The position numbers and the translations under genes were made by a program. DNA of 38,693 nt from Bacteroidota bacterium. GTDB lineage: Bacteria; Bacteroidota; Bacteroidia; Bacteroidales; UBA4417. This document shows positions 6,690 to 34,888 of this stretch, piece by piece. The notes beneath the pieces are model-generated. The model worked only from the letters and a program-made list of their open reading frames with translations, did no database searches and was not told the origin of the DNA. The stretch is taken from NCBI GenBank assembly GCA_020048595.1, contig JAIFMH010000034.1:1-38693 (forward strand), written 5' to 3'. Position 1 is the first letter of the stretch; each line of letters begins with the position of its first letter.

Positions 6690-6703
6690 TATAGCAATTT
6701 ATA

Positions 6704-7849: not shown

Positions 7850-7852
7850 AGT

Positions 7853-9013: not shown

Positions 9014-9121
9014 TTTTTATATAGATTAATTCTCATTTGAGAAAAAAATTTACTTAAACTAAATTCAGAGCCCAACTGTGTTATCCTTTGCTTTCCATCG
9101 GTAAAAAATTGGTTTTCGATT

Positions 9122-14271: not shown

Positions 14272-16260
14272 TTACCGGCCAAACCCGAATGGTTTCTTTA
14301 CCGTTTACGGGGGGCGCCGGACGTTGCATGTATACGGCGCAGTCGCGTCCGAGCCGATCTTCACCCCGTCCACATAGAACTCCACGTTCGTGATGGCACC
14401 GTATGACGTTGTCGCCGAAACCTTGATAGGCGCCGTAGTCCCAGCGGTCACCGTCGCACCGTTTGTTGAAAATCATGTTCATGGCGCCTCGATCCTGACG
14501 CGCTGCACCTGGAAGACCGCCGGGGTCGGCAGCGGCACGTCGACGGCGGCATCGACGCCCTTGTTGTCGGTGACCCCGCGCCAGACACCTGTGCGCAAGG
14601 ACAGCCGCTGCAAGGTCTTGGCGTCCGCCTCGGCCACGGCCAGTTCCTGCGCCGCGCCGCCATTGACATGCACGTTGTAGCGGCCCGCCTCCGCATCGGC
14701 GACGATGACCAGGGAGAGCTTCTCTCCCGCCGTGTATGTGCCGAGGTCAACGGCGTTGTTCCCGTCCGCCGCCTGCACCGTGCCGGTCTCAGTCAGCACC
14801 ACACGCACCGGCCGGCGGCTGGCGGGATCGCAGAGTTCGATCTCCAGCCGGGCGTTGGCCTGGGCCGGCGTCAGTTCCAGTTCGACCCGAACCTTTGCCG
14901 ATTCAGGGAACACGCGCACGGCGCGGGCGTAGTCGAAGGGATCGCCGTCGCGCAGTTCCAGGCTGCGTTTCCCGGCGTTCTCGACGACAGTCACAGGTGC
15001 CCACTTCGGGCTGTAGAGATTCCATCCCGGCACGACGGCGTTGGGCGTGGCCTTCGTGAAATCGTCCGTCGGGAACGCGGTCTCGTCCGGTTTGACCGGC
15101 AGAGCGATGCGCGACACCCAGATGTCTTCCTTGTTGACGCTGTAGACCAGCCACAGCGCCTGCTTCGTGTCCGCGAACGTACCGTCATCGGCCCACTCGG
15201 CCAGCCCGCGCACGTACTGCGCGCCGGGATTCTTGTACTTTCCCGGATAGCGAAGCGGGGGAAGTTCGCCATGGACTACCCGCAGGTCGCGGAATTCGCG
15301 GCCGTCATCGCCGTGAACGATGACAAGGGGATAACGGATTTGCCGGCCCGGGTCAGGGTTGTAGGCAAGGGCGAAACGGCCATCGTCCGTTCTTTGCCCC
15401 CAGATCTTGCCAGATCCAGCCAGCAGCGACGGTGGCTGCACCGGCCGTGACCAGGTCTGGCCATTGTCATCCGACAACGTCACAAGTCCCATCTTGCACA
15501 GACCGACCAATGCCCCGTCCTGGCGGTGGTAGAAGCAGAGGGCCTTGCCGAACTTCCAGAAACCGACGCTGTTCAACTCCTTGTCGGCATGCCACTTCAT
15601 GCGGAGGTCGCCGAGATAGACACCGTAGTCCTGCTGTTCCAGGAGAAGGTTGCTTCCAGCGGCTTCGCGGCAGGCCGCCACAAAACCGGCATCCGTTGAC
15701 GTCTCGAAAGACGGCAGCAGATCCGGCAGCGGGGCGATCAAGGTGAACACCTCGCCGAGCTGATGATCGGCCGTGATCTCCCGGACCAGCAGCACCTTCT
15801 TCTCGGCCTCGCTGACCGTGCTGTCAGCCGTATTGCCGGCGCAGAACGCCAGCATCCGCCCGTTGGTGGCGCGGTAGAAGTAGAAACGAGCGGCACAGGA
15901 GACCTTGCGCGGGAAGAGATCAGCCGGCGCGGACCACTGCCAACCGTCCCTCGATGTCGCATATACGACCTTGTAGGGAGGAACGTCCTCGTCCTTCGGC
16001 GTCATGGCCCAGGCGGCATAGATCCGGCCCTTCCAGACCGCCAGGTCCTGGTGGTGGGCGTAGGTCCAGCCGTCGCCATCGGCCTGCTCCGGCTGGTTGC
16101 GGCTCGCACGCAGGATCTGGATGTTCTGCACGCCGACGACGGGTTTCAGCCCGCCATCGGGCAACTGCAGGTTGAGGCGGCCTTGTTCATTGCCGCTGAC
16201 CACGATGGGCGTGCTCTTTTCCTGCGCGGCGAGTGGCGATGGGGTCATCAAATTGAGGGC
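14272..16260. other. GC-rich compositional island 2
   Basis: Same visual criteria as island 1. Shadow ORFs 14668..15450 and 15763..16281 occur on the + strand. The lower boundary falls inside the Ig-like remnant and the upper boundary inside the signal peptide. Confidence 0.7.
14305..14478 (-). pseudogene. Truncated bacterial Ig-like (Big_7-type) domain remnant, in frame with the upstream gene behind two TGA codons
   Basis: Reading on in the frame of 14479..16290 gives ...RIEAP TGA T TGA FSTNGATVTAGTTAPIKVSATTSYGAITNVEFYVDGVKIGSDATAPYTCNVRRPP TAA. The pattern NGAT-x-TAG...VEFY-x-DG-x-x-(I/L)G-x-D-x-x-APY is the first ~55 aa of an Ig-like domain and is cut off where the GC-rich DNA ends. Track ORF 14267..14482 is a different frame over the same DNA. 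Confidence 0.5.
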
Positions 16261-16290
16261 GATAATCATCATTATCAATAATCTTTTCAT
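14479..16290 (-). CDS. GC-rich secreted sialidase-fold/BNR-like propeller protein with a C-terminal LamG/jelly-roll-like domain
   Basis: 603 aa with signal peptide MKRLLIMMIIALNLMTPSPLAAQ. It has Asp-box-like motifs (SRDGWQWS, SDDNGQTWS) and a C-terminal beta-sandwich-like region. The body uses GC-rich codons and the first ~10 codons are AT-rich. Confidence 0.75.
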   Translation of the reverse strand: MKRLLIMMIIALNLMTPSPLAAQEKSTPIVVSGNEQGRLNLQLPDGGLKPVVGVQNIQILRASRNQPEQADGDGWTYAHHQDLAVWKGRIYAAWAMTPKDEDVPPYKVVYATSRDGWQWSAPADLFPRKVSCAARFYFYRATNGRMLAFCAGNTADSTVSEAEKKVLLVREITADHQLGEVFTLIAPLPDLLPSFETSTDAGFVAACREAAGSNLLLEQQDYGVYLGDLRMKWHADKELNSVGFWKFGKALCFYHRQDGALVGLCKMGLVTLSDDNGQTWSRPVQPPSLLAGSGKIWGQRTDDGRFALAYNPDPGRQIRYPLVIVHGDDGREFRDLRVVHGELPPLRYPGKYKNPGAQYVRGLAEWADDGTFADTKQALWLVYSVNKEDIWVSRIALPVKPDETAFPTDDFTKATPNAVVPGWNLYSPKWAPVTVVENAGKRSLELRDGDPFDYARAVRVFPESAKVRVELELTPAQANARLEIELCDPASRRPVRVVLTETGTVQAADGNNAVDLGTYTAGEKLSLVIVADAEAGRYNVHVNGGAAQELAVAEADAKTLQRLSLRTGVWRGVTDNKGVDAAVDVPLPTPAVFQVQRVRIEAP

Positions 16291-16325
16291 AAAAACAATT
16301 TTTTAGTTAAAAATCTAATTTGAAT
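16211..16325 (-). repeat. Leader module copy A (5' proximal region plus 27 signal-peptide codons), direct repeat of 27553..27667
   Basis: Hand alignment gives 72/80 identical nt over the coding part, plus ~35 nt upstream with a 2-nt indel. Peptides are MKRLLIMMIIALNLMTPSPLAAQEKST and MKRLLIMMIIAYNLMIPSPLTAQEKST. Similarity stops abruptly after EKST. Confidence 0.9.
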
Positions 16326-16385
16326 ATTATGTACCGGTAATACTCCTAGTTCATACTTTCTCCTTGTTGTTGTTTGTAGTTTCCT

Positions 16386-16419
16386 AAGTTCATTGGCCAA
16401 ACCGGAAGCTAATGAACTT
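16386..16419. other. Stem-loop (9-bp arms aagttcatt / aatgaactt, 16-nt loop) in the intergenic region
   Basis: Arms are perfectly complementary by inspection, and no U-tract follows. The function is unknown. Confidence 0.25.
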
Positions 16420-16586
16420 CCTCCTGCTCAATGTGGTTTGCAGCATTTATGTAACGTTTTTTATCAGGTTCACGCATAATTATTCACTTCCAAAATCTTG
16501 CACAGTCTTTTCTAGTTTATAAATTCCAATACTTCAAGAAAATTCATTTTGCCCATGACTTAAACTCTGAAGTCATATTTTTAGTT

Positions 16587-17624
16587 TTAAATAGGTTTCC
16601 AGTAGAATATTGCCAACCCTGCCGGATCAAGCTTTTCAGTAAATTCAGCAATTTCCTCTTCATTTAACTCTCCATTGACTATAACACTCTTTGAAGCAGC
16701 CTGAATTTTTTTGCATGACTCAAGAATCAATTCTTTCCTGAATACCCCTGTTTCTCTTTCAATTGTTACTTCTACAGCTTTCAAATTTTCTATCTCAAGT
16801 ACCGCATCAAGGATATGCAAGCCGCATGCATGCATATGCAGCATACTGTATGGAAACTTATCAATGATCTTTTTGTCAAACTCCAGAAAATGCTCTTTGT
16901 AATCATTTAGTGAAAAGAGATTGGAAGCATCTATCTGGTAGTCTAAAATCGGTCCTGGCGCAAACACACTCCAGGCTGAAACGTATCCGCCTTTCCATGG
17001 CTGCCGCATATCAATATTTCGCTGTGCTGTCAAAATATATAATTCTGCAAATTTTTCCGCCAGTTTTGCAACCTTCTCAGGGCAGAGATACATAGAAGTG
17101 CACAACATTTCCTCACCCATGAATGCAGCAAGCATATCGATAACGCCTCTAAAATGAAGCTGTCTCACAGCTAAATCAACTCCTGCTTTATCAATAAGTT
17201 TTTTCATGACATTATTCATTACCTCAAACCATTCGGATTTCAAAGCACCTTCTACTGTGAATTCATCCATTGCATTTTCAATATCTACCGATACCGGTTT
17301 TGAAGAGCAGCTGAAAGCTGAAGCATAAATCGGGCATCCTATTACCGCCTCCATCCAGGCCTCAGAATATAGACATCCTGCAAAATTAACCATATCACCG
17401 TTAACCGGTTCAGGTTTGCTTTTCCCTTCTCCCACTAATCTGGAAATATCAATATCTTCGGGAAGCACTTTTTCAGGGTCTATAATCTCTCTGCCGCCCT
17501 TTACAGGATATGGCTTTTTATTGAAACCGTTAAAAGGTATTCTTGCCAATAGCGGTTCTTTGTTTGTAAGCTTCCAGAATTCCTTATTCTTTTCAATCAC
17601 TTTGCTTATTACTTTTTCATCCAT
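16587..17624 (-). CDS. Cytoplasmic hypothetical protein, possibly a URO-D/MtaA-like TIM-barrel superfamily member
   Basis: 345-aa ORF with no signal peptide. HMHACGLHILDAVLEIENLKAVEV weakly resembles the H-x-CG...D region of URO-D-like proteins. The family assignment is weak. Confidence 0.5.
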   Translation of the reverse strand: MDEKVISKVIEKNKEFWKLTNKEPLLARIPFNGFNKKPYPVKGGREIIDPEKVLPEDIDISRLVGEGKSKPEPVNGDMVNFAGCLYSEAWMEAVIGCPIYASAFSCSSKPVSVDIENAMDEFTVEGALKSEWFEVMNNVMKKLIDKAGVDLAVRQLHFRGVIDMLAAFMGEEMLCTSMYLCPEKVAKLAEKFAELYILTAQRNIDMRQPWKGGYVSAWSVFAPGPILDYQIDASNLFSLNDYKEHFLEFDKKIIDKFPYSMLHMHACGLHILDAVLEIENLKAVEVTIERETGVFRKELILESCKKIQAASKSVIVNGELNEEEIAEFTEKLDPAGLAIFYWKPI

Positions 17625-17737
17625 ATTCGTATCGTCGCTCCTTTGCTACGCATTATCTTAATTTTTTCTTAAACATTATACCTCTCATATATTCTGACTA
17701 TTATTTTTTATCCTTTACCGATTTGTTGAAGAAGCAT

Positions 17738-17962
17738 TTAGGGGTCATTCCAGTTAGTATTGTGCGATTTCCCTTTTTGTAAACCAGCTGCAATAAAAAA
17801 ATTACTGAAACCAGCCGAGTTTAAACTATCATTCAGGCCCTGCCAAACGCTTTCGATTGCCCCTGTTTTAAGAGCCTCCTGATAATTTGCCTGAGCCAAA
17901 CAAGTCAGATTAATAAATAGTATGAGTTGTAATGCAATGATTTTTCGATTGGTTGACTTCAT
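17738..17962 (-). CDS. Small hypothetical secreted protein, or an N-terminal gene remnant
   Basis: 74 aa with a signal-like N-terminus (IIALQLILFINLTCLAQA). No recognisable domain. Confidence 0.25.
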   Translation of the reverse strand: MKSTNRKIIALQLILFINLTCLAQANYQEALKTGAIESVWQGLNDSLNSAGFSNFFIAAGLQKGKSHNTNWNDP

Positions 17963-17986
17963 TTTTTTCGTTTTAATAAACGATAT

Positions 17987-18436
17987 TCAAACCTTAACTT
18001 TCACAACTACTTTTCTAATAGGCATGCTCTTACCGGAAATGACCTTTGGCATGTGAAGGTCCTGTGGATACATAATGGCAAACATCCCTTTGGTATATCT
18101 GATCATATCTGGATTCCCGATAAATAACCAGTAATCCTCCTTTTCGTGGTAAGGCTCTGATATTTCCTGATTGTTCAGCCATTCATAGCCAATACACTCT
18201 TCACCTTCAATCATAAAATGAATATCAATGTAATTTTTGTGCGCCTCTAAAAGGCTTTCATCCAACGATTTTGTGGTACATTCCACTACCATTGCATACA
18301 CATTTTTTCCATCAAGAGCATACTCTCCTGATTCAACTTTTGAGAAATCGGTTTCACTTAAATACTGAAGGGCTGTTTTAATACGTTCGCCCAAACCAAA
18401 ATAAAGTGTGGCATTTGAAATGTGATCTGTAATCAT
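17987..18436 (-). CDS. YhcH/YjgK/YiaL family protein (DUF386; NanQ-like sugar-acid anomerase/isomerase family)
   Basis: 149 aa. The pattern ...ALQYL...G.Y.LDG..VYA.V......ES.LEAH..YIDIH..I.GEE.IG is typical for the family. Confidence 0.8.
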   Translation of the reverse strand: MITDHISNATLYFGLGERIKTALQYLSETDFSKVESGEYALDGKNVYAMVVECTTKSLDESLLEAHKNYIDIHFMIEGEECIGYEWLNNQEISEPYHEKEDYWLFIGNPDMIRYTKGMFAIMYPQDLHMPKVISGKSMPIRKVVVKVKV

Positions 18437-18456
18437 CTTTTTTGTTTTTTAAATTA

Positions 18457-18846
18457 TTAGTTTCTATTTTTTTCTCCAAAAACATCACGCACTGCCTCAA
18501 GGTATTTATACCCCGAGCGCAAATCCGGTTCGAGGTAACTTCCTTCAGTCCACTCGTTCCAGCAATTAATATTAAAAGTATTGCCACAATCAGGATTATT
18601 CTTCATGAATAATTTAGTTTCCTCCAATGCAGCCTTGAAAGCTTCCGGGGTATTTCCTCCCATTTTTGCCATAAACGGATAGCCAATATCAACCAGAGAA
18701 TCGTTCTGGTTTGTTCGCGGACTTGCATCCCAGCCCATGGTTACATTCGGGAAATAGGAAACACCATAATCTGTTTTTGCCTTCTCCCAATGTTCGAAAT
18801 AGCGGTCTCGAACCCAGTTGTAATCGGTTTGCGTTTCCTCTCTCAT
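18457..18846 (-). pseudogene. 5'-truncated WbsX / GH99-like family fragment (C-terminal ~130 aa only)
   Basis: YFPNVTMGWDASPR and NCWNEWTEGSYLEPD match the C-terminal part of WbsX-type proteins, whose full length I recall as about 370-400 aa. The upstream sequence is AT-rich with stops in frame. Confidence 0.55.
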
Positions 18847-18903
18847 GGTGATAAATTTTAATGAATTATTATTGACAAATCATTAATTATCAGTAATATA
18901 ATA

Positions 18904-20096
18904 TCAGAAAAAATCATTCCCATCAGACTTTGATTTTGGCCTCACCATAAACAATAGGATAGCACATATTATCATGATTAAAGCTGCGAACTGATACATA
19001 TTACTGAGATTTATGTTCGAGTCACGCAAAACCCCACCGGCATATATTGCCAAAGCATTGGCATCATATTGGAATCTCCGAACGCTCGTGTAAAAGAAAA
19101 TATCATAAAAGCAAAAATTGCAAGAGGTAGAATTGTAGTCCAGCTTGCTAAAAAAATGCAAGGTGCAGCTATTAAAAGGCCAATAGCAGGAACATGAATC
19201 CTTGAAAGGCGGTTTTTCCGGCTCCACCTGTCTGCAATAAAACCGCCGAAAAGTAATCCACCTATTGCTGCAGGATATAAATAACCAGTTGCATAAAGTC
19301 CGGCAATACCCTGGGAAAGGTTGAAATTTTCCTTATAGTATGTAGGGAGCCATCCCATCACTAGCCAACCGACAACTCCTAAAAGACCCCAGTATCCAAG
19401 CATCAAAAGAAAAGATCTCTTCCTAAACAGATCCCTTATACCTACAAAAAAGTTGATTTTACGCTCGGCTTTTCTTGTAATATTGTTTACAACATTTTTT
19501 GGTGGATCCTTAAGAAAAACCGCGACAACTATTGAATACACTATCCCCGCAACACCAAAAGAGATGAATAAAAAGTTCCAGGAATGATTTTCGGCAAGTA
19601 ATCCACCAAGAAATCCCAGACTCGATCCAACAAAAATTCCTGTCATATGAATTCCTGTTGCCAGGGAACGGGTAGAACTTCGGTGGTAATCTGCTATAAG
19701 TGCCAACGCTGCAGGAATATAACCTGCTTCACTTATACCCATTAATATCCGGGTAATCAATAATTGTTCAAATGTTCTTGAGTAAGCTGTCAACCATGTT
19801 ACTGCTGACCAGACTAATAAGCTTACGATAACAACACGGCTGCGATTAAATCTATCTGCAAGAAATCCTGCAAAAGGACTAAATATCCCATATGTCCATA
19901 AAAAAGCTGAAGTTAGAAGACCGAATTGAGCATCACTCATCGGAATTGCGTCGATAATTGAAGATCGCATAGTAGTGATCATTATACGATCGAGATAATT
20001 TAAGGCACCTATAAAAAAAAGTAATACAACTACAAGCCATGCGCCTTTTGGTAATTTTGATTCCGGAGTTAGTATCTCAGATGGAGTAATAGACAT
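18904..20096 (-). pseudogene. MFS transporter (ACS/hexuronate-type) with an internal deletion and frameshift near the 3' end
   Basis: Frame 1 (19011..20096) encodes TM1-10 and ends ...FGDSNMMPMLWQYMPVGFCVTRT*. The expected TM11-12 (..ALAIYAGGVLRDSNINLSNMYQFAALIMIICAILLFMV..) is encoded in another frame (18904..~19065). The usual ~20 aa between MPxLxQ and the (I/L)Y-x-GG-x-LRD segment appear to be missing. Confidence 0.5.
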
Positions 20097-20219
20097 TTGC
20101 GTTTGGTTTAAATTTAGAAAACTCTCTTTAAATGGTTAATCACTGACTCAGCCAGATTCTCTCCTTATCTGATAAACGATTGTTAATTATTTAGACCGTC
20201 ATCGAAACATGAAATTACC

Positions 20220-21143
20220 CTACTCTTTTTGTCTATCCCATACTGCCGGAGTAAAAAGCCAATTAGGTGCCCCATTTAATTTATCTTCTATTGTATTTAT
20301 TATTCCTTGATTAAGTGGTTTAGAATCAATTAGTTTAGCATTTTCATGTATATGTTCAGGATTATCTGCGCCTATAACAAGAGAGTTAACATACTTAAGG
20401 CTTTTAACATAGGAAACAGCCAGTTGGGCGACTGATATATTCATTTCTTCGGCAATTTCATTTATTTTTATTAAATACTTACCTATTTCTTTCAGGTTGC
20501 CCTTCAAATTTGTCGGATTTAAATAAAAGAGCCCCTGTAAAAATACACTCCTTGCAAAAACCAGTTTATTTTGAAGCCTCCGGGCACCATCCCCTTTGGT
20601 GATTCTCATATCAAGCATATTTACTGGAATTTGAAAGGCATGATAGATATCATTTTCCAGCATTACTTCAATTTCGTCAAATTCGTAACAAGAAGCTCCT
20701 GCCAATTTTATTATACCCTTGTCCAAAAGGTTTTCATAGACTTTTGTTATTTTATTCCCGAATGTTGAATACTCTTTTGCATTATGAATTAAAAGTATGT
20801 CTAGGTAATCTGTGTTGAGGTTTTTTAATGATTTTTCAACTGATCTCATCATAACAATTTCGACATCAGATGCACTAATCTTGCCTAATTGAAATTTAGT
20901 AACTATTGATATATCAGATCTTCTTATTTTGTAAGCTGATAAATATTTCCCGATAACTTTTTCAGAATCACCATAATCGGCTGCAGTGTCAATACAATTG
21001 ACACCAGAGGCGAGTGCTGAATCTAATATTCTGAATGCCTTTTCCTCGTCCGGTTTTCCTTCATTATTGGCAATACCATAATTTAAACCTAACTGGACAG
21101 TTCCCAAAGTCAACTTAGAAATTGAATTATTATATTCCATCAT
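20220..21143 (-). CDS. Aldo/keto reductase
   Basis: LGTVQLGLNYG...AFRILDSALASGVNCIDTAADYGDSEKVIG is the canonical AKR N-terminal pattern. Confidence 0.9.
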   Translation of the reverse strand: MMEYNNSISKLTLGTVQLGLNYGIANNEGKPDEEKAFRILDSALASGVNCIDTAADYGDSEKVIGKYLSAYKIRRSDISIVTKFQLGKISASDVEIVMMRSVEKSLKNLNTDYLDILLIHNAKEYSTFGNKITKVYENLLDKGIIKLAGASCYEFDEIEVMLENDIYHAFQIPVNMLDMRITKGDGARRLQNKLVFARSVFLQGLFYLNPTNLKGNLKEIGKYLIKINEIAEEMNISVAQLAVSYVKSLKYVNSLVIGADNPEHIHENAKLIDSKPLNQGIINTIEDKLNGAPNWLFTPAVWDRQKE

Positions 21144-21206
21144 TAATTATCCTATTTAATTTGTATTGTTTTTTTATTCACACCCTCTTTCAACAGTTTA
21201 TAGCAA

Positions 21207-22013
21207 TTAACTCTTCCCATCGTATATACTGCTTGTTGTATCGGGTATATTCTTAAAATTGGAAACAATTCCGGTGATATACTGGCTCAATCCTACAACA
21301 TCGGCTCCCATGTTGATAAATCTGTATCCCATATCTATTAATTCTTTAAGGTTGCCTGCTGAACCTACCGTGCCAGCGAATTTACCATGCTTTATAGCTA
21401 CCTCAGCAACTCTTTTCCTCGCCTTTAAAAGCGCTGGATGATCCCATTGCCCTGGTGCACCGATTCCCTGGCTGAAGTCCCCTGGTCCGAAAAATAGCAT
21501 ATCAATCCCTTCAAGTGCTGCAATTTCTTCAAGCTCATCTAAAGGCTCAGGATCTTCGATCTGAACTGATATAAATCTCCTCTCATTAGCCTGCTTAATG
21601 TATTCTTTAACATCGATAGTGCTATAGGCACCATCTGCATTTCCTCCATCGAGGGGTCGCCTGCCAACTGGATGAAAGCGGGTCATCTTTACTACATTCT
21701 TAGCATCAGCAAGACTCATGATATGAGGAACCATTATTCCGGATGCATCCATTTCCAAAGGTTTAATAAGATCACTATAGCTTCCTCTGGGAACCCTCAC
21801 CATGATGTCGGTATTATGAGCCTTGGAAGCCAGGATCTGTTTTTCAACGGCTGAAAAGTCATTCGGTGTATGTTCCATATCAGTCCATATACAATCAATA
21901 CCCGACAAGGCTGCTACCTCGCAGACACGTGAATCAAAAAGGTTAAGCTTGATACAGCTGACAATCCCTCCTGTCCTTAGTTTATCCAAAACTTTACTTT
22001 GTCTCATTTCCAT
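21207..22013 (-). CDS. HpcH/HpaI-family class II aldolase (2-keto-3-deoxy acid-sugar aldolase)
   Basis: CIWTDMEHTPNDF, MVRVP and QIEDPEPLDELEEIAALEGIDMLFFGPGDFSQGIG are typical for GarL/YfaU/HpaI-type aldolases. Confidence 0.9.
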   Translation of the reverse strand: MEMRQSKVLDKLRTGGIVSCIKLNLFDSRVCEVAALSGIDCIWTDMEHTPNDFSAVEKQILASKAHNTDIMVRVPRGSYSDLIKPLEMDASGIMVPHIMSLADAKNVVKMTRFHPVGRRPLDGGNADGAYSTIDVKEYIKQANERRFISVQIEDPEPLDELEEIAALEGIDMLFFGPGDFSQGIGAPGQWDHPALLKARKRVAEVAIKHGKFAGTVGSAGNLKELIDMGYRFINMGADVVGLSQYITGIVSNFKNIPDTTSSIYDGKS

Positions 22014-22077
22014 AATTAAAAACTCCTATATTATAATTTAAATTTAGTAAGTATATTTTCCCCTGTTCGGCTTTATA

Positions 22078-22887
22078 TTACCAGGCTGTCCAGCCACCAT
22101 CGATAATAATGTTTGATCCTGTCATATAGCTTGATGCATCGGATGCTAGAAGTATTAATGCCCCTGCCAACTCCTCCGGTCTTCCTGCTCTTCCCATCAT
22201 AGTTTTTGCATGTAATTTCTGTTTGAAATCTTCGGTCAGGTTCCCTTTTGGGTTGGGAAATGGTCCTGGTGTAATGCTGTTTACTCTGATATTTTTACCG
22301 GCAAGATGGCCTGCACAGTATCTTGTAAATTGCAATACTCCGGCTTTCGCCGCACCGTACTGTGGTGGATTGTTCTGCCCGCTCGTACCATAAATCCCCG
22401 GATCAGGAGATACTATCCCGTACATAGATGCGATATTGATAATATTCCCTACTCCATTTTCATAAAAATACGGGAGCACCTCCCTTGTGCATCTGAATGT
22501 TATATTAAGTGTACCATCTATGCCTGTTTCCCAGATTTCATCGGACATCTCGTCGATGGAATGAGTGGCAACCTTTTTCCCGCCAGCTCCTCCTCCGTAA
22601 ACCGCACAGTTAATTAAAACATCGATCCTGCCGTGCAGGTTTTTTACCTTTGCAAACATTTCCCTTGTTGAATCTGTACTTGAAAGATCACATTTGAGTA
22701 CTTTCAGATTCTCAGCCAGATCATCTCCACCTGCAATTTCAACAGGCTTTTTTTCTGCAATGTCAGCTATCACTACTGTCCCTCCGGCTTCAAGAAGGGC
22801 TTTTGACATGGCACTTCCAATGTAACCGATGCCTCCGGTTATGAGAATAACTTTACTTTTTAGGCTTAATAAATCTTTAATGTTCAT
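22078..22887 (-). CDS. SDR-family oxidoreductase
   Basis: ITGGIGYIGSAM (TGxxxGxG) together with the YGAAKAG catalytic YxxxK motif. Confidence 0.9.
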   Translation of the reverse strand: MNIKDLLSLKSKVILITGGIGYIGSAMSKALLEAGGTVVIADIAEKKPVEIAGGDDLAENLKVLKCDLSSTDSTREMFAKVKNLHGRIDVLINCAVYGGGAGGKKVATHSIDEMSDEIWETGIDGTLNITFRCTREVLPYFYENGVGNIINIASMYGIVSPDPGIYGTSGQNNPPQYGAAKAGVLQFTRYCAGHLAGKNIRVNSITPGPFPNPKGNLTEDFKQKLHAKTMMGRAGRPEELAGALILLASDASSYMTGSNIIIDGGWTAW

Positions 22888-22899
22888 AATATCATGTCA

Positions 22900-24534
22900 T
22901 TAATGGGTGCGATCTAGAAATACGAAGGAATATATGTCAGCGTCTCTGATTACGAAACGCAGGCGCACCGGTTTCCCGGCAAGAGTGGAGAGATCGGGAT
23001 TTGCCTTCCAGCTTACAGCTCTTTCGAGATTGTCTCCATAAATCTCATGACAATCGGCTAAACTAAAGCCGGGTAAAGACCGACCATCAATATCCTGAAC
23101 CTCAATACGAACGGAGCCTGCTGCAGAGGTTGAGACATTCAGAAACAATGTATTTCCGGTAAACGTGATAGGTTTGGTGACCATCTCACCCCCGACAAGC
23201 GGAGCATGCAGGGATACAAAACCATCGATGCGTATGTTGTATCTGCGGATGATGGCCCCTCTATCTTGGTTTTTCCTTTCAAGGAAATATAACGAAAGTT
23301 CAGGTGGAGCATCCTCTATAGCGGAGCTGGTTTCCACAATACCCCAATTCTGGTACATGTCGCCATAGAACCAGCCGCCTTTATTTCTCAACCCAGGGCG
23401 AAGAAAAGCCTCAGGCCAGATACGGAAATTATGTCGGTCGCGGCTCGACATGATCATACCCTCTGTTAGAGCTGTACCCAGTCTGCGGGTTTCTTTTGCA
23501 CGTGTATACCTGTAATCATATTCCGGCAGGGCCTTTGCTGACTCCGTCCAGCCACGATCGATGTAACGTGTTGGAAAACCTATCAACAGGTGGGGTGCAC
23601 GGTAATATGGTATAATCTGATTCGTATACAACTCGCTAACCCGGCCCGATGGATACTCCTTCCCCGCAGTATCTTTCGCAGACACCGATAAAGCATTGTG
23701 ATTGCCCGGATCAACGATGGCTGAATAGCCGAGGAACACGGGGTCTGTCCAATTGAGGAAATCATGCGATGTCTCGGTCATGATATCGCGCCCTTTATCG
23801 CTTCCGGAGTTTATGAGATTCCAATTACCCTCAGCCCCTCCCCTAAAGGTCCGATGGTATGCACGATATTCACCTTGCAGCTCATCCCAGAAAGCGAGAT
23901 TCTGTGAATCGAAGTCACCCTTGGTGACAACTGGCACTGAATCCATTAACTTCCAATTGATACCATCAGATGACTTATATGCATACAGCCCTTTTTTTCC
24001 AACTGTTATTCCGAGTGCTTTGTACTTTGCGTCTGCCATGCACTCCGGATTTGTGTCAATGAAGGGTGAAAAACTTTCATTACCTGAGTCCAGAATAATA
24101 TTGTTCTTTTTTGATCCATTATATGAAAAGAGACCCAGCTCCGGCCTTATCCAGTGGATGCCATCTTGACTTTCAGCGTAACAGTAAACATTACGCGTGG
24201 TCGGCCGGTCTTTTCCATTAAGATAGGAAATATGCCTGCCACGGTAGTACATACGGTATTTAGTACTATCCTTAAAAACCGTTACATAGCCGGTTCCATT
24301 ACCTTCCCATGGTTCATTAGTCTCTAGGGCAATGTCCTGTGGAGTTGGATGTTGCATTTGTAATTCGGTCTTACCCGAAAGACGTTCAATAAGGTAGTCG
24401 TCCACAAATAATTCCCTATTACTGCCTAATCTGATTATTTCGTTGTTAACAGTCTTTTCTGAACATTTGTAACCTGATATGGTAATAAAGAGTACAATTA
24501 ATAAAAGTTGGTTTTTCATATAAATGATTTTCAT
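22900..24534 (-). CDS. Secreted beta-propeller-type putative glycoside hydrolase with a C-terminal jelly-roll domain (unclassified family); AT-rich homologue of 26157..27632
   Basis: Shares with 26157..27632 the blocks ELFVDD, CYAES-DGI-W, F-PF-DT-P---DA-YKAL, ELYTNQ--PY-RAPH, FLRPGL, DGF-S, GGE--TKP--FTG--LF-N-ST-AAGS-R-E-QD, LPGF and GKPVRLRF--R--D-YSF-F. The start may be the second Met (MKNQLLL). Confidence 0.8.
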   Translation of the reverse strand: MKIIYMKNQLLLIVLFITISGYKCSEKTVNNEIIRLGSNRELFVDDYLIERLSGKTELQMQHPTPQDIALETNEPWEGNGTGYVTVFKDSTKYRMYYRGRHISYLNGKDRPTTRNVYCYAESQDGIHWIRPELGLFSYNGSKKNNIILDSGNESFSPFIDTNPECMADAKYKALGITVGKKGLYAYKSSDGINWKLMDSVPVVTKGDFDSQNLAFWDELQGEYRAYHRTFRGGAEGNWNLINSGSDKGRDIMTETSHDFLNWTDPVFLGYSAIVDPGNHNALSVSAKDTAGKEYPSGRVSELYTNQIIPYYRAPHLLIGFPTRYIDRGWTESAKALPEYDYRYTRAKETRRLGTALTEGMIMSSRDRHNFRIWPEAFLRPGLRNKGGWFYGDMYQNWGIVETSSAIEDAPPELSLYFLERKNQDRGAIIRRYNIRIDGFVSLHAPLVGGEMVTKPITFTGNTLFLNVSTSAAGSVRIEVQDIDGRSLPGFSLADCHEIYGDNLERAVSWKANPDLSTLAGKPVRLRFVIRDADIYSFVFLDRTH

Positions 24535-24604
24535 GATTTATTTTTTTATAACATGGATTTGTCGGGAGAGTGTTCAAGCCATTTTAATGGAGTATTTAAA
24601 TCCA

Positions 24605-26005
24605 TCAAAAATTAGCTGCATTCTGAACCTTAAATACCCAGGCATACTGGCACGGATTTGTAGCTGGTGACATCGCAGGCGGAGTAATAATCAGTTTTTT
24701 ACCTGAAACCGAATATTTTACTTTGCCTTTAAAACCAAGCATTGAAACCGATTTGGTAGAACCAATTCCTTCAACTACAATCGGTTTATCCTGCCATTTG
24801 GTAACAATCACATACAAATCAGCGCCTTTTTTGGTGAAATAAACAGTCGTTTCAGGTTTTACAATAGGAGCTTTGTCCCATTTGCGAGTGCTATAAATGG
24901 CTTCGCCGTTTACTTTCAGCCATGCGCCCATATCGGACAGGCGTTGTTGCATGATCTCAGGAATACGACCATCTGCTGTTGGCCCAATGTTGAGTAACAG
25001 GTTTCCACCACGAGCAACCTTGTTTATCAGGATATGTACCAACTCTTCTGAAGTGGAATAATCCTCCAGCACTTCGTTCCGGTTGTAACCAAACGAACCA
25101 GCTGTACCCCGGCATTCTTCCCAAGGATGTTCAAATTTGGTGTCGTTCGCATTACCCTCGTACACCAAATCGTATTCGGTGGTATAATATCCGCCATGTT
25201 TGCTGCGGGTTTCTTTACCCCAGCGGTCGTTTACCACTACGGTGTTTTTTACGGGAGATTCGTTATAAAGCCAGGCCAAAAATTGGGTGCTTTTCCATGC
25301 TTCACTTGGGTGATCCCATTCTCCGTCGGAATAAACCACGTCGGGTTCATAGCGGGTCACCAGATCTTTCATCTGCGGAATCATGTGATCGTCAACGTAT
25401 TTGCCAAGGTCAGATTTATACAAAGGGTTGAACCATTCGTAAAGCGAATAATAAAAGCCCATGTGCAATCCACTTGCTTTCACCGATTTGGTCAGATCGC
25501 CACACAAATCGCGGTGCGGACCAACATCAACTGAGTTCCAGTTCCAGCTCTGTGCACTAGGCCAAAGTGTAAAGCCATCGTGGTGTTTGGAGGCCAATAC
25601 AATGTATTTGGCACCTGCTTCTTTAAATCGTTCAGCCCATTCGTCGGGATTGAACATTTCAGCTTTGAACTGATTGGCAAAATCCTGGTATTTAAAATCT
25701 TTTCCATACACCTGATTGTGATAGTCGATAAAAAAATGTTGTACTTTGGATGGGTTTACCAAACGGCTCCAGTACCATTCGGCATATTGTTCGTAAACAC
25801 CCACCTTATCGCGTTTGGTTGGACTATAAGCCGGTACTGAATACAATCCCCAAAAAATAAAAATCCCGAATTTGGCATCTTCGAACCATGTTGGAACAGG
25901 ACGACTGTCGATGGATGACCAGTTAGGCTGGTAGGTTTTTTGTGAAAACCCATGCAGTAAAGCAATAAAGAGAAATACAAATACTAAAATGATTGATTTT
26001 TTCAT
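24605..26005 (-). CDS. Alpha-L-fucosidase, GH29
   Basis: Signal peptide, then YQPNWSSIDSRPVPTWFEDAKFGIFIFWGLYSVPAY, AEWYW and KYIVLASKHHDGFTLWPS, which are classic GH29 motifs. Confidence 0.9.
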   Translation of the reverse strand: MKKSIILVFVFLFIALLHGFSQKTYQPNWSSIDSRPVPTWFEDAKFGIFIFWGLYSVPAYSPTKRDKVGVYEQYAEWYWSRLVNPSKVQHFFIDYHNQVYGKDFKYQDFANQFKAEMFNPDEWAERFKEAGAKYIVLASKHHDGFTLWPSAQSWNWNSVDVGPHRDLCGDLTKSVKASGLHMGFYYSLYEWFNPLYKSDLGKYVDDHMIPQMKDLVTRYEPDVVYSDGEWDHPSEAWKSTQFLAWLYNESPVKNTVVVNDRWGKETRSKHGGYYTTEYDLVYEGNANDTKFEHPWEECRGTAGSFGYNRNEVLEDYSTSEELVHILINKVARGGNLLLNIGPTADGRIPEIMQQRLSDMGAWLKVNGEAIYSTRKWDKAPIVKPETTVYFTKKGADLYVIVTKWQDKPIVVEGIGSTKSVSMLGFKGKVKYSVSGKKLIITPPAMSPATNPCQYAWVFKVQNAANF

Positions 26006-26026
26006 ATTTAAATATTTTTGTGTTAC

Positions 26027-26043
26027 TTAAATATCTAATTTGA
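26027..26043 (-). promoter_or_regulatory. Conserved 17-nt upstream box (gene orientation TCAAATTAGATATTTAA), also at 16307..16323 and 27651..27667
   Basis: 16/17 identical to the boxes upstream of the two GC-rich genes. All three lie 16-21 nt upstream of the ATG. It contains a TAGAT(T/A)TT stretch loosely resembling the Bacteroidota -7 element TAnnTTTG. Confidence 0.35.
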
Positions 26044-26051
26044 TTTTTTTG

Positions 26052-26070
26052 AACCGGAAATACTCCGGTT
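26052..26070. other. Short hairpin (aaccgga aatac tccggtt) at the lower edge of GC island 3
   Basis: Perfect 7-bp arms. No U-tract follows on the minus strand, so it is not a canonical terminator for the upstream gene. Confidence 0.25.
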
Positions 26071-27605
26071 TGTGGGCAAAAGAGGGCAGGCTGGCCTCCA
26101 CTTCTTTCAGGAAATCGACGATTCCGTTGGAGGTGCAGGCCGAACCCGGTCTCCTTCTACTTGCTGTGGAATCGGAACGAATACACATCGCACTCGCGCA
26201 TCGCGAATCGCAGGCGCACCGGTTTCCCTGCGATGGCAGCAAGGTTCGGGTTGTTCTTCCATCTCACCCGCCGCTCGATCGCGTCGCCGATGACGGCCTG
26301 GCAATCATCCATGCCGAACCCCGGTAGTGCCTGGCCCGAAGCGTCCTGGATCTCGACCCGCAGCGAGCCGGCTGCCCCGGTGCTGAAGTTCACGAACAGG
26401 GAATCACCTGTGAAGATCAGGGGCTTCGTCAGCAGTTCGCCGCCGTCGGCGCCGGCGTTCACGGAGATGAAGCCGTCGGTCCGCAGGGTGTAGCGATCGC
26501 CGCTTATTGTATTATAGATGGACATCTCCTCGGGGCCTGTCGGCACGACATTCAGTGATACGTAGTTCGCCCTTTGTTCCCATCTTGCCGGATCCAAGCC
26601 TGGCCGGATGAAGGCCTCCCTGAAGGTGCGCTGATATGAAGCGGAACCGGCGCGCATCGTCATGAGCATGATGTCGGTGGAGCCGTAGTTGCCCTCCACC
26701 GGCTCTCCCATCTCGATGCCCATCATGAATCTACTCGGCAATGCGACATAGATATGCGGCGCGCGGAAATAGGGATGCGTCTGATTCGTGTAGAGTTGTT
26801 CGCCCGGAAGATTGGCATCGGTGTCGACCAGCGGAGTCCAGGTGATGAAGTCGGTCGAGGTCGTCCGACCGACTCGCCGCTGGAACTTCTTGTACGGATC
26901 CGTCTGTGGAGGCTCGATCATGCCCCAGGTGCGGACAAAACAGACATAGCAGTTCTCGGCCTCGGACCAGAAGGCCGGACTCGACGAATCGAAGGGCCAG
27001 GGCGTTCCGGGGGCCTGATTCGGCGTTTTTATGACAGGCGCGTCCTGGATCTTGCTCCAGTGGATACCATCGGCGCTCTTGAAAGCGATCAGTCCGGTCC
27101 CTCCCGATCCCGCCAGCGCTTTGTACCGGGCGTCCGGTGCGACACCGGGCCGGGTGTCGAGGAAGGGGGTGAAGTTGTGGGTGAACGGAGCCTGGCGGGC
27201 CAGGATCACATTGCCGCCCTTCGAGCTTTGGATCTTTGTGATGCCCAGGTCGGGGAACGTCCATTCGATACCGTCGCGGCTTTCCGCATAGCAGGTGATC
27301 TCGTTCGGTTCGTTGTCTGCGTTGCGCTCCTGTCGCCCCTTATCGTACCCGGGAATGTCGGAACGATAGTACGCCCGGTAGAGATCCCCGTCCTTGATGA
27401 TGGTGCCGTACGCGCCGCTCGGCAGGGGACTCCTGGCGGGCGCTTGCCTGACCGGCGCATGCAATCGGAACGCGACGCCCGTCATGCGCTCGACGAGCAG
27501 GTCGTCGACGAAAAGCTCCAGTCGTGTGCCTATCTCAACGGGTTTCATGCTCGTGCTCTTCTCCTGTGCGGTGAGTGGCGATGGGATCATCAGATTGTAG
27601 GCGAT
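26060..27605. other. GC-rich compositional island 3
   Basis: Same visual criteria as the other islands. Shadow ORF 26754..27623 lies on the + strand. The GC-rich tract extends ~100 nt beyond the stop codon. Confidence 0.7.
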
Positions 27606-27632
27606 GATCATCATTATCAATAATCTTTTCAT
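26157..27632 (-). CDS. GC-rich secreted beta-propeller-type putative glycoside hydrolase with a C-terminal jelly-roll domain; xenologue of 22900..24534
   Basis: 491 aa with signal peptide MKRLLIMMIIAYNLMIPSPLTAQ, shared with 14479..16290. The motif blocks listed for 22900..24534 are conserved (roughly 40% identity by eye). The body uses GC-rich codons. Confidence 0.85.
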   Translation of the reverse strand: MKRLLIMMIIAYNLMIPSPLTAQEKSTSMKPVEIGTRLELFVDDLLVERMTGVAFRLHAPVRQAPARSPLPSGAYGTIIKDGDLYRAYYRSDIPGYDKGRQERNADNEPNEITCYAESRDGIEWTFPDLGITKIQSSKGGNVILARQAPFTHNFTPFLDTRPGVAPDARYKALAGSGGTGLIAFKSADGIHWSKIQDAPVIKTPNQAPGTPWPFDSSSPAFWSEAENCYVCFVRTWGMIEPPQTDPYKKFQRRVGRTTSTDFITWTPLVDTDANLPGEQLYTNQTHPYFRAPHIYVALPSRFMMGIEMGEPVEGNYGSTDIMLMTMRAGSASYQRTFREAFIRPGLDPARWEQRANYVSLNVVPTGPEEMSIYNTISGDRYTLRTDGFISVNAGADGGELLTKPLIFTGDSLFVNFSTGAAGSLRVEIQDASGQALPGFGMDDCQAVIGDAIERRVRWKNNPNLAAIAGKPVRLRFAMRECDVYSFRFHSK

Positions 27633-27667
27633 AAAAATATTTTTTAATTGTTAAAAATCTAATTTTA
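27553..27667 (-). repeat. Leader module copy B, direct repeat of 16211..16325
   Basis: See copy A. Both copies have the same orientation and lie 11.3 kb apart. Confidence 0.9.
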
Positions 27668-27779
27668 CAATGGCATCGGAAGAAGAATTATTTGCCAATA
27701 CTTGCAGCCTTGGATTAACCTGAAATATATTTACAAAATTCCGCCGGAAACCGTCATAAAGCAGATCATTTTTATAATT

Positions 27780-34237: not shown

Positions 34238-34326
34238 TAAGACGACAATATCAAGCTACACACATATACAAAAAAGTATTTTTTTTGCATTTATTTTTAG
34301 AAAGGAATTCAGATACTTTATTTACC
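34238..34326 (-). promoter_or_regulatory. Conserved ~90-nt element copy R1 in the sigma/anti-sigma intergenic region (candidate ECF-type promoter; core ATATGTGTG-N12-GTCGTCTTA in gene orientation)
   Basis: Hand alignment with 35295..35384 gives about 70% identity overall, with two fully conserved blocks. The GTCGTC block resembles the CGTC -10 element common in ECF-dependent promoters. Confidence 0.4.
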
Positions 34327-34888
34327 GGATCAAAAAAGTGATGAACCAGAACGGAAGAAAATCAGCAAGTTCCTTTCTGAGGATTTTCAGTGCGTTACTG
34401 ATCTGCAGTTCAACAGTGCGTTTGGATATTTCTAATTTTTCGGATATATCTTTATTTGATAAGCTTTCTATCCGACTTAGCTCAAATATCTCACGGCATC
34501 TTGGTGAAAGTTTTTCAAGACTTTTCTGAATGGTTTGGCGAAGTTCAGATTCTGAGAAATAATTATCTGCTGAGTTGTTGGAGGACTCTGACGAGAAGAG
34601 GAAATATGTCTGATATTTCTCAGTAACCTTCTTGTGTTTCCGGTAGTCGAAACAGCGGTTTTTAACACTTGCAAAGAGGTACGCTTTAAGGGATGACTGG
34701 ATTTGTAGTTTTGGCGCCTCTACCCAGAGAGTAACAAACAGCTCCTGAACAAGATCTTCAACTGTTTCACGATCGTTAACATACTGCATAGAAAAGGCAC
34801 AAAGAGATGAGTAGTAATAGTTGAAAATATAATCAAATGCTACTTTGTCTCTTCTTCCAAGCGCTTCAATCAGTAACAGATCTTTCAA
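34322..34888 (-). CDS. ECF (sigma-70 family, group 4) RNA polymerase sigma factor
   Basis: AFDYIFNYYYSSLCAFSMQYVNDRETVEDLVQELFVTLW (region 2) and REIFELSRIESLSNKDISEKLEISKRTVELQISNALKILR (region 4 HTH). It apparently uses a TTG start, because a TGA lies in frame 3 codons upstream. Confidence 0.9.
   Translation of the reverse strand: MKDLLLIEALGRRDKVAFDYIFNYYYSSLCAFSMQYVNDRETVEDLVQELFVTLWVEAPKLQIQSSLKAYLFASVKNRCFDYRKHKKVTEKYQTYFLFSSESSNNSADNYFSESELRQTIQKSLEKLSPRCREIFELSRIESLSNKDISEKLEISKRTVELQISNALKILRKELADFLPFWFITFLIR

Follow-up and report, generated by a model that had tools for sequence, protein, structure and literature searches.

A stretch of about 120 nt, made up of an upstream box and a secretion signal, starts two unrelated and recently acquired GC-rich enzyme genes in a sugar-utilisation locus of the window, the 38,693-nt Bacteroidota contig analysed here. 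Taken whole, the explanation we find reasonably probable is that a 5′ gene module was grafted serially onto horizontally acquired glycan-degrading genes and serves there as an adaptor. The structural history by itself, meaning that the module is truly duplicated, that its leader is chimeric and that it passed in the direction from gene B towards gene A, very probably holds, while the balance is about even for the adaptor function read from the sequence. All genes under study lie on the minus strand, in a locus ordered ECF sigma, anti-sigma, SusC, SusD and then the enzymes.

The 5′ module is common to positions 16210–16346 of gene A (14479–16290, 603 aa) and 27552–27667 of gene B (26157–27632, 491 aa), and a repeat search aligned 16205–16303 with 27547–27645 (99 nt, 88% identity). 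Codons 1–27 of the leader, at 16210..16290 in copy A and 27552..27632 in copy B, share 73 of 81 nt, with 36/39 identical in the AT-rich part and 37/42 in the GC-rich part, and the translations begin MKRLLIMMIIALNLMTPSPLAAQEKST (A) and MKRLLIMMIIAYNLMIPSPLTAQEKST (B). Upstream, an exact 16-nt block (AAATTAGATTTTTAAC) is found in both copies and matches continue to about −35 with one 2-nt indel; the longest perfect tract between the copies is 31 nt (TTTTTATGAAAAGATTATTGATAATGATGAT). Directly past codon 27, identity drops to background (14/60 over the next 60 nt, 81/300 over the next 300 nt). The GC fraction jumps from ~0.1–0.2 to ~0.6–0.67 near coding nt 39–42 in both copies, and the mature proteins are unrelated (best BLASTP E = 0.014 over 54 aa). 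These values bear out what the sequence-only reading had described: a direct repeat heading two genes, the two leader peptides, a sharp end of similarity ahead of unrelated mature proteins, and an AT-to-GC switch at the same place inside each copy.

Read from its sequence, the leader is a layered chimera, in which the box and codons 1–13 are AT-rich and Bacteroidota-like and codons 14–27 are the end of the native signal peptide of B. The body of gene B (26157..27551, 57–64% GC) belongs to an uncharacterised family common in PVC bacteria, with no Pfam match and no significant PDB relative. Its homologues in contigs of uniformly 62–70% GC natively encode ..GATGACCCCATCGCCACTCGCCGCGCAGGAGAAGAGCACGAGC.., and the native signal peptide in the GC-rich lineage reads MF..IH.LSAAVAAGLLLMMTPSPLAAQEKST/SMKP (slash, cleavage site); this ancestral peptide already carried AAQ at its end. 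In copy B, the AT-rich replacement occupies 27594–27632 and the ancestral end of B occupies 27552–27593, which runs on into the mature protein (..QEKST SMKP..). In nucleotides, the B body of the window shares 96.5% identity with its counterpart in a verrucomicrobial-type contig (L028) and 94.7% with one from a GC-rich contig (L019) that carries the native signal peptide. On a tree of the mature B proteins the leader types are intermixed, and therefore leader and body recombine separately. By its sequence, gene B comes, with its native signal peptide, from a GC-rich verrucomicrobial/PVC-type lineage; in the allele present here, all DNA upstream of ..TTGATGA was swapped for AT-rich DNA consisting of the upstream box and codons 1–13 (MKRLLIMMIIA.N), resulting in a chimeric signal peptide. 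A native source of the AT-rich half was looked for and not found.

The sequence-only reading had left two options, a junction made once and then copied or a common leader used twice. The second is excluded, for the leader's GC-rich 3′ half was ancestrally the end of the signal peptide of B itself, and only copying could have brought it to A; the first is supported. The proposed host origin of the leader stands for the upstream box and the first ~13 codons, which look host-derived, and falls for the GC-rich half. Likewise, the contrary idea that the shared N-terminus came with the genes from their donors is half true of B, since donor-type homologues carry ...TPSPLAAQEKSTS, and untrue of A.

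Gene A shows the copying from the receiving side. Its body (14479..16209, 63–69% GC) is GH143-like and comprises a BT_1020-like beta-propeller and a sialidase-like CBM, matching PDB 5MQR with E = 2.7e-87. The leader of A consists of an AT-rich half at 16252–16290 and a GC-rich half at 16210–16251, and the latter is identical at 40 of 42 nt to native B of a GC-rich contig (L012). Only A's own close alleles (at least 90% identity) carry this leader. In the other A homologues (at most 81% identity) the signal peptides are unrelated, and the point where homology sets in coincides with the repeat end, at PIVVSGNEQ right behind the leader for every non-leader homologue.

A sister-strain allele of A (L003) is longer at the junction by 42 nt and reads leader, GMCEAGESATRAAP, then IVVSGNEQ. 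The extra segment consists of the end of the signal peptide and the opening codons of the mature protein of gene C, a paralogue of B that stands as a third body behind the same leader in two contigs (L025, L028). It matches native C, whose signal peptide reads ..VPSMCEA/GESATLAAP AAVAPLRIG (P0310/L026), at 29/30 nt, with the junction at the shared CGAGCATG, the same 8-nt microhomology at which C is joined to the leader of B. The C-derived 42 nt in long A and the join of C to the B leader therefore make B to C to A the likely order, and direct copying from B to A, as originally proposed, gives way to a route that most probably ran through gene C. Parsimony is the basis for placing C before A; an unobserved A allele with an MKMRHS-type signal peptide would permit A then C. 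In that likely order, the complete chimeric 5′ end was joined first to C at the microhomology and from C to the unrelated A, carrying along 14 C codons, of which the A allele in the window later lost 13 (39 nt). The module would have spread between genes that lie close together, through recombination that is illegitimate or relies on short homology.

As the notion of a reusable cassette had implied, the module has been reused: it heads no fewer than three distinct gene bodies (A, B and C) and also persists as two kinds of body-less stump, one of 10 codons (L002/L023/L024) and a solo leader of 27 codons (L027). The upstream box of copy A (16291..16346, ..GGAGTATTACCGGTACATAATATTCAAATTAGATTTTTAACTAAAAAATTGTTTTT), which a deletion junction at ~16346–16349 truncates on the far side, also precedes leader-B (L023/L024/L028), leader-A (L003/L005/L006) and the stump (L002). 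Beyond that junction lies the stump of a second shared 5′ unit (16347..16384, minus strand; ACTACAAACAACAACAAGGAGAAAGT ATG AAC TAG), which in sister strains heads two GC-rich genes, X1 and X2, both absent from the window. The box of copy B is a short form (27633..27667) whose similarity to copy A ends at ~−35, and homology between the window and a relative (L004) begins only at −14. Just upstream of the B module, a 103-nt internal gene fragment (27672..27774) marks a rearrangement scar; the same relative has the gene in question intact. The 3′ flank of B (26006..26156) holds 20 nt co-transferred with B, the only part beyond the stop codon common to the copy in a GC-rich genome, followed by a spacer (CGTCGATTTCCTGAAAGAAGTGGAGGCCAG..) and a third upstream box immediately before the start codon of GH29. 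This spacer and box also precede leader-A (L003/L006) and the leader stump (L023/L024).

Intact leader-B and leader-C occur as AT-rich islets in verrucomicrobial-type contigs (L028/L029), and therefore the module is not restricted to the AT-rich host. The grafting may have taken place elsewhere, with the finished fusions then imported. By this account, which we regard as possible although doubtful, a verrucomicrobial-type or third genome was where the chimeric leader arose or was assembled and where it spread to C and A, and the window organism imported A and B with the leader attached, the module being a passenger of repeated cross-phylum transfer and not a host adaptation. Consistent with it, the arrangement X1-X2-leaderC-559aa-box+leaderB lies within 56–68% GC DNA of L028/L029 beside genes that cluster with Verrucomicrobiota MAG proteins, the B bodies of window and L028 share the 96.5% identity given above, the upstream homology of L028 to a Bacteroidota contig (L023) exceeds 110 nt, and L028 holds a "C-long" junction intermediate to the long A allele. 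However, the box and leader start of L028 form an islet of 16–36% GC, foreign to that genome and typical of Bacteroidota intergenic and 5′ regions. Every leader-A context with flanking DNA is AT-rich Bacteroidota (window, L003, L006), and the spacer and box also stand directly ahead of the native AT-rich GH29 gene.

Under the preferred reading of serial grafting, the module would supply what GC-rich foreign genes lack in Bacteroidota, a translation start and an export signal. Its initiation region appears A/U-rich and weakly structured, which would suit ribosomes that work without Shine-Dalgarno pairing; Bacteroidia ribosomes ignore Shine-Dalgarno sequences (PMC7797042, PMC9976891). Predicted mRNA folding from −30 to +40 gives −4 to −7 kcal/mol where the start is chimeric and around −5 where the gene is native to Bacteroidota, as against −13 to −21 kcal/mol for native GC-rich starts, while the mean unpaired probability at the start codon separates chimeric from native starts less cleanly than folding energy does. 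The encoded peptide is a predicted Sec/signal-peptidase-I signal, and cleavage at ..PLAA/QEKST would expose an N-terminal Gln in accordance with the Bacteroidetes Q-rule. Like the Q-rule peptides described in PMC5837995 and PMC10653852, it has an MKR n-region, a 12-residue hydrophobic core, no lipobox cysteine and a predicted AA/Q cleavage; unlike them, its cleavage-site half is of GC-rich foreign origin. Donor-type signal peptides of A homologues end AA/EP or AA/DA, without Gln. An expression role for the upstream box, implied when the repeat was called an expression and secretion cassette, is putative: no sigma-70-type site above background and no Rfam match were found in the box, and there is only a near-match to the Bacteroidetes −33/−7 motifs.

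The two copies had also been seen as a substrate for RecA-mediated deletion or amplification of the intervening 11.3 kb, which is only a possibility; that such programmed variation of the locus is their main role seems improbable. As direct repeats the copies lie 11,342 nt apart and share the 31-nt perfect tract, and loci of close relatives differ by indels with end points adjoining modules. Nevertheless, overall identity is only ~88–90%, the minimum that RecA needs for efficient pairing lies close to 31 nt, and the observed breakpoints fall at microhomologies or elsewhere in the box, not leader to leader. No recombination product of the two window copies, including the predicted SusD–leader-A deletion product, was found among the contigs, and an exact-match look-up of the window SusD protein returned nothing. 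The two copies would instead be by-products of the grafting history and not a dedicated recombination device.

A dedicated integron-like or transposon-borne system that places promoter-plus-leader units before incoming genes is very improbable. The module does occur in many different genomic contexts, an IS adjoins the flank of B in L004 and a MITE-like element abuts leader-C in L028, but Pfam scans of the window's 26 ORFs gave no integrase, recombinase or transposase, the module lacks attC-like or inverted-repeat ends, and its junctions differ by copy, lie at microhomologies and have variable upstream end points (−14, −35, beyond −110). The present case resembles integron gene cassettes, whose captured ORFs are expressed from a promoter of the platform, only in the concept of expression signals in cis to incoming genes; here there is no integrase or attC/attI, and the junctions are irregular and inside coding sequence. 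Chance or artefact, be it convergent signal-peptide sequence or chimeric assembly of this metagenomic contig at a repeat present in genomes of two phyla, which could in principle mislead an assembler, is effectively refuted. The window has two copies of a 26-nt core for which 100 dinucleotide-preserving shuffles predict 0.00, and the identity is one of DNA, extending to synonymous sites and to the non-coding sequence upstream. Independent assemblies from other samples show these in-frame AT/GC junctions again (JGI, ENA and Logan contigs L003, L004, L006, L022–L025), and where the islands give way to AT-rich DNA, their 3′ ends are no shared repeats.

Conserved 5′ modules of promoter and signal peptide stand on divergent surface-protein genes in the "upstream homology box" of Borrelia and the variable lipoprotein genes of Mycoplasma. 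As there, near-identical upstream DNA and leader precede unrelated mature sequences and recombination between copies is implied. Those lipoprotein (SPII) families, however, each belong to one genome and serve antigenic variation. The genes here are of foreign origin, lie in a polysaccharide utilisation locus and encode SPI enzymes predicted to be periplasmic, and nothing points to phase or antigenic variation. The Borrelia box is mentioned in PMC6719511. Chimeric genes that gain a recipient-type N-terminal targeting or signal sequence after transfer are well documented into eukaryotes, for example the arthropod HGT-fusion genes (PMC13389597). Those too join a foreign catalytic body in frame to an N-terminus of other origin with a compositional break inside the ORF, whereas in this case genes were exchanged across bacterial phyla, the signal peptide itself contains the graft point, one graft is reused serially with its route recorded as nested passenger codons, and the graft is also found back in a GC-rich genome. 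Acquisition of CAZymes by Bacteroidota polysaccharide utilisation loci likewise brings compositionally foreign glycoside-hydrolase-like genes into a SusC/SusD locus; the emphasis here is on the rebuilding and sharing of the imports' 5′ ends, not on transfer.

Two further genes of the locus carry leaders of their own. The gene at 22900–24534 (minus strand, 544 aa, 45% GC) was correctly called a native paralogue; it is related to both B and C, is 36% identical to B and has a lipoprotein-type leader. A third GC-rich gene, DUF6259 (9122..12244, minus strand, 1040 aa), has a different AT-rich host-type leader and is an independent case of 5′ replacement. The other leaders of the window end KA/QA (DUF6259) and FS/QK (GH29).

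Pfam scans identify the window as a Bacteroidota-type polysaccharide utilisation locus, in which an ECF sigma factor (34322–34888) is followed by a FecR-type anti-sigma factor, a SusC protein with an STN domain, SusD, and then enzymes and sugar-acid catabolic genes. GC content lies mostly at 33–46%, with three genes at 57–69%: genes A and B and a DUF6259 gene. Residues 40–585 of A match PDB 5MQR, the GH143 domain of BT1020 (E = 2.7e-87), and Pfam assigns Beta-prop_BT_1020 and Sialidase-like_CBM; by homology, the body of A is a predicted GH143-type hydrolase. Past its stop codon, ~180 nt of GC-rich (0.47–0.67) non-coding DNA (about 14298–14478) appears to be left over from the next gene downstream in the donor, after which AT-rich host DNA returns. 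For B, Pfam and PDB searches gave no domain and no significant solved structural relative. A native paralogue of B (22900–24534, 544 aa, 45% GC) is 36% identical to it, and the GH29 gene is also native, falling in one cluster (≥90% identity) with a protein from a Prolixibacteraceae MAG. Between SusD and the module heading B lies a rearrangement scar, a 103-nt fragment (27672–27774) matching, at 99% identity, the interior of a 631-aa gene that is intact in the related locus L004 (3617–5512). Judged by its gene content (1508–9013 and 16587–24534), the locus may serve the use of a fucosylated glycan containing ulosonic acid: besides the GH143-like enzyme, GH29 and a BNR sialidase-like protein, there are aldolases of the DHDPS family and HpcH type, a four-carbon acid-sugar kinase with a PdxA-like enzyme, YhcH/DUF386, and transporters of the MFS and SSF families.

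Genes A (14479–16290, minus strand, 603 aa) and B (26157–27632, minus strand, 491 aa) translate to the N-terminal peptides quoted in the sequence-only reading, and the shared 5′ repeat proposed there is real. A repeat finder and a computed alignment give 88% identity over 99 nt (16205–16303 versus 27547–27645), with 73 of 81 nt identical in codons 1–27, and a 26-nt core present twice in the window occurs in none of 100 shuffles. Past the leader, identity falls to 14/60 in the next 60 nt and 81/300 in the next 300 nt. Upstream of both starts lies an exact 16-nt block, AAATTAGATTTTTAAC, with scattered matches to about −35, and the longest perfect tract between the two copies is 31 nt. The AT-to-GC switch described earlier likewise falls inside the repeat at the same place in both copies, where GC steps from ~0.15 to ~0.65 near coding nt 39–42.

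The two halves of the leader have different owners. Among 800 scored homologues of A, the leader is present in one 98% allele only; the others (≤81% identity) carry unrelated signal peptides, with homology beginning at PI(V/I)V.G(D/N)EQ, where the repeat ends, and the nearest leader-less homologue lies on a contig (L021) of 63% GC throughout. In homologues of B (79–91% identity), signal peptides of the kind MFSSIHTLSAAVAAGLLLMMTPSPLAAQEKSTSLKP are found, on contigs (L012, L015 and L019) of 62–70% GC end to end. Their DNA reads ..TTGATGATGACCCCATCGCCACTCGCCGCGCAGGAGAAGAGCACGAGC.., to which the GC-rich half of the leader of A is identical at 40 of 42 nt. By this comparison, the GC-rich 3′ half of the leader is the ancestral signal-peptide end of B, and the AT-rich additions are codons 1–13 and the upstream DNA only. 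Since the GC-rich half is native to B, the direction of travel is set, from B towards A. The same match bears out the earlier suggestion of a single fusion that was later copied to other genes, with the refinement that the leader is itself a chimera, host-type in the AT-rich codons 1–13 and upstream DNA and donor (B) sequence in the GC-rich half.

In three other loci (L002, L023 and L024), a full upstream box precedes a 10-codon stump, MKRLLIMMII-stop, joined in frame to the final 35 codons of a WbsX-like gene. This in-frame junction is why the WbsX-like gene was considered as the native owner of the AT-rich half, and it was rejected on the start of the intact gene, MKLLPMKNT.., which has a lipobox. 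The window itself has only the C-terminal third of a WbsX-like gene (18457–18846, minus strand; Pfam positions 253–350 of 350), to which the tail joined to the stump in those three loci is related. When the window genes were compared, no other began with a leader resembling that of the module.

Genome and metagenome collections were scanned with the 23-nt leader core. The genome scan gave one true locus (L002) and one chance match in a spirochaete, five of the nine metagenome matches were by chance, and a 54-aa concatenate of both leader variants used as a protein query gave one candidate, which is no complete list of the genes headed by the leader. The true matches of the scans add several copies of the module, and a third gene body, C, also carries it. 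The flanks of L003, L004 and L006 are 98–99% identical to the window, and L022, L023 and L024 carry more distant leader-B genes (77–81% aa identity) in which the called start is an internal MMII, with the full leader present in the DNA. Gene C is a paralogue of B (38% identity). The leader heads it in L025 and L028, and in L006 gene C is found two genes upstream of A.

The route of the leader can be read from codons left at its junctions. The native-type signal peptide of C, from an exhaustive representative search, is MKMRHSPRRSPRLWTLVAAIVLTLEVPSMCEA/GESATLAAPAAVAPLRIG (P0310, at locus L026; here and below the slash marks the predicted cleavage site). In the sister strain L003, gene A (616 aa) reads leader-GMCEAGESATRAAP-IVVSGNEQ, and its extra stretch is identical to native C at 29 of 30 nt. 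The B/C junction is an 8-nt microhomology (native B, ACGAGCATGAAA; native C, CCGAGCATGTGT; hybrid, ACGGGCATGTGT), and the long junction recurs in C of L028 (QEKST-GIGEAGKSATRAAP-AAVAPLRIG). Gene A of the window differs from the L003 allele by the loss of exactly 13 codons, and that of L006 is trimmed slightly differently (QEKSTGIMVSG). The most parsimonious order is passage of the leader from B to C to A, with trimming afterwards. We infer the C-before-A step, because an A allele with an MKMRHS-type signal peptide may also have existed; with that step so taken, the nested passenger codons are a rare case in which the order of events can be read off directly. Some A alleles read AYN, for which gene conversion between the leaders of A and B was considered and rejected: of the four possible site combinations only three occur, so ancestral polymorphism explains the pattern.

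The leader-C gene has an in-frame stop in L025 (121–330) and is reduced by deletion to a solo 27-codon leader in L027 (1378–1515), so that imported genes are decaying in some lineages. In L027, whose upstream flank is common to L025, the solo leader immediately precedes the orthologue of the window's SDR gene, a position taken in the window by the native B paralogue (22900–24534).

In a neighbour-joining tree of the mature B proteins, genes with chimeric and native leaders are interleaved, and the module and the gene bodies thus move independently. The body of the window's B is 96.5% identical at the nucleotide level to L028, 94.7% to L019, which has a native signal peptide, and 94.3% to L004; more distant copies stand at 85% (L023) and 81% (L022). 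L028 comes from a 114-kb contig of 56–68% GC and is corroborated by L029 of another sample. Its neighbouring genes cluster with Verrucomicrobiota MAG proteins. The locus runs in the order ECF sigma, X1, X2, leader-C gene, 559-aa gene, box with leader-B gene, and GH141-like gene, X1 and X2 being GC-rich genes known from sister strains. Within this contig, the box and leader start form an islet of 16–36% GC. The chimeric genes have therefore crossed between an AT-rich and a GC-rich genome at least twice in total. With gene bodies near-identical at 96.5%, the exchange between Bacteroidota and verrucomicrobial-type genomes is, on sequence divergence, recent, and it was probably bidirectional. Proteins ≥90% identical bear the MAG labels Opitutae, Verrucomicrobia and Proteobacteria; some of these, at first taken as mis-binned, may be true verrucomicrobial copies, on contigs that are short. 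The picture of a reusable leader stands in that the leader was copied onto several genes; it needs amending in that the leader also occurs in a verrucomicrobial-type genome and most probably reached A via a third gene.

The DNA upstream of the module differs widely between contexts. Matching to the window sets in at −14 in L004 and beyond −110 in L023 and L028, compared with about −35 for the window's B, and the spacer and box found behind B also precede GH29 in the window and leader-A in L003 and L006. In L004, an IS-like element with two opposite-strand ORFs (8803–9723) lies between the spacer/box of B and the GH29 start codon. L028 contains a MITE-like element of ~170 nt with 19-nt terminal inverted repeats (GGGACAGACTGATTATTCG / CGAATAATCAGTCTGTCCC), at about 6290–6450, 3400–3540 and 11690–11850. 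The copies lie upstream of X1, of the leader-C gene and of the GH141-like gene.

The translated leaders of A and B have a positively charged n-region, MKR, a hydrophobic h-region, LLIMMIIALNLM, within the 7–15-residue range, and a c-region ..P-L-A-A/Q-E-K-S-T with small or neutral residues at −1 and −3 and Gln at +1, as predicted by inspection. No Cys occurs in the first 30 residues of either protein, and hence no lipobox. Judged by eye on published cleavage criteria (−1/−3, no lipobox, Gln +1; PMC5837995), these predicted features are those of a Sec/signal peptidase I signal peptide of the Bacteroidetes Q-rule type. An N-terminal Gln is exposed in most SPI substrates of Bacteroidetes (PMC5837995, PMC10653852), and the donor-type signal peptides of the homologues of A end in AA/EP or AA/DA. 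Shine-Dalgarno pairing is not used by Bacteroidia ribosomes (PMC7797042, PMC9976891). Predicted folding over −30 to +40 is weak for the chimeric 5′ ends (−4 to −7 kcal/mol), like that of the window's native genes, compared with −13 to −21 kcal/mol for the GC-rich starts that B and the homologue of A have natively. The DUF6259 gene (9122–12244, minus strand, 1040 aa; leader about 12143–12244) starts with an AT-rich host-type leader, MRRTFNFILISVTLLLIAFSIIKA/QA, and its ≥90% identical cluster mates have donor-type starts such as MEMIRTLLTIFLLILSLTAASA/ADQ, with homology from PVLL, which makes it, on these alignments, an independent 5′ replacement reaching the same solution with a different leader. 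From the weak folding, the n/h/c layout, the AA/Q site and this parallel, we infer that the module would act as an expression-and-export adaptor for GC-rich imports and would spread among clustered genes by short-homology or illegitimate recombination.

The box may also contain a promoter. The Bacteroidota consensus is −33 TTTG / −7 TAnnTTTG with 19–21 nt spacing, and the best promoter-like reading of the full box (TTTC, 19 nt, TAGA(T/G)TTT, ending ~23 nt before the ATG) is a near-match. Of the window copies, A has TTAC for TTTC and B is without the −33 part. On the coding strand, scans for sigma-70 promoters and for terminators found no site above background, and an Rfam search gave no family. 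A box hairpin, CCGGAGTATTTCCGG, was discarded as a conserved element, being broken in L003 and L005. It seems doubtful that box (promoter or 5′-UTR), structure-free start and dual-compatible signal peptide together form a compact, naturally evolved cross-phylum adaptor that lets genes for secreted glycan-degrading proteins pass in both directions between Bacteroidota and Verrucomicrobiota, secures expression in both and is actively propagated from gene to gene for its portability; were this so, the MKMRHS.. leader with its Shine-Dalgarno site would be the verrucomicrobial counterpart.

The earlier note also proposed RecA-mediated deletion or amplification of the intervening 11.3 kb. Homologous recombination requires direct orientation and a perfect tract of at least about 25–30 nt, and the window copies, which are direct repeats separated by 11,342 nt and share the 31-nt tract, make RecA-dependent exchange conceivable. 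Among the related loci examined, a limited search and thus weak evidence, there was no deletion junction, circle or amplification product, and an exact-match look-up of the window's SusD protein gave no entry. Structural differences among the relatives occur at microhomologies and other points in the box, with no leader-to-leader crossovers. An integron or mobile gene-cassette system was rejected, as Pfam scans found no integrase or transposase in the 26 window ORFs, the repeat finder found no inverted repeats bounding the module, and the junctions are variable. Chimeric assembly is untenable because independent assemblies of several origins show the AT/GC junctions again, in frame, and the GC-rich islands end at unshared 3′ points, 20 nt past the stop of B and after the ~180-nt remnant past that of A.

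The case belongs with known phenomena, namely N-terminal chimeras formed after transfer and 5′ leader modules common to several genes, and is not a new kind of system. Between phyla that differ greatly in GC content, promoter types and translation-initiation rules, barriers to expression are considered to limit transfer. Here, only the first ~120 nt of each import would be rebuilt and the rebuilt piece recycled for the next, a natural bypass of that barrier. An ORF of discordant GC content whose AT-rich 5′ end recurs in its neighbours may thus serve as a genomic signature of domesticated imports, and for heterologous secretion in Bacteroidota the module is a natural candidate leader.

A second shared 5′ unit, comprising a strong Shine-Dalgarno site, CAACAACAAGGAGAAAGT, and MKMRHS.., heads X1, X2 and native C. 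It lies at 5740–5830 and 7380–7470 in L003, as a tandem duplication, at 3540–3570 in L028 and at 380–500 in L026. X1 and C have almost the entire signal peptide in common, with bodies only 27% identical. The window lacks the ~2.9 kb carrying X1 and X2 and retains a stump of the MKMRHS unit (ATG AAC TAG) at 16347–16384 on the minus strand.
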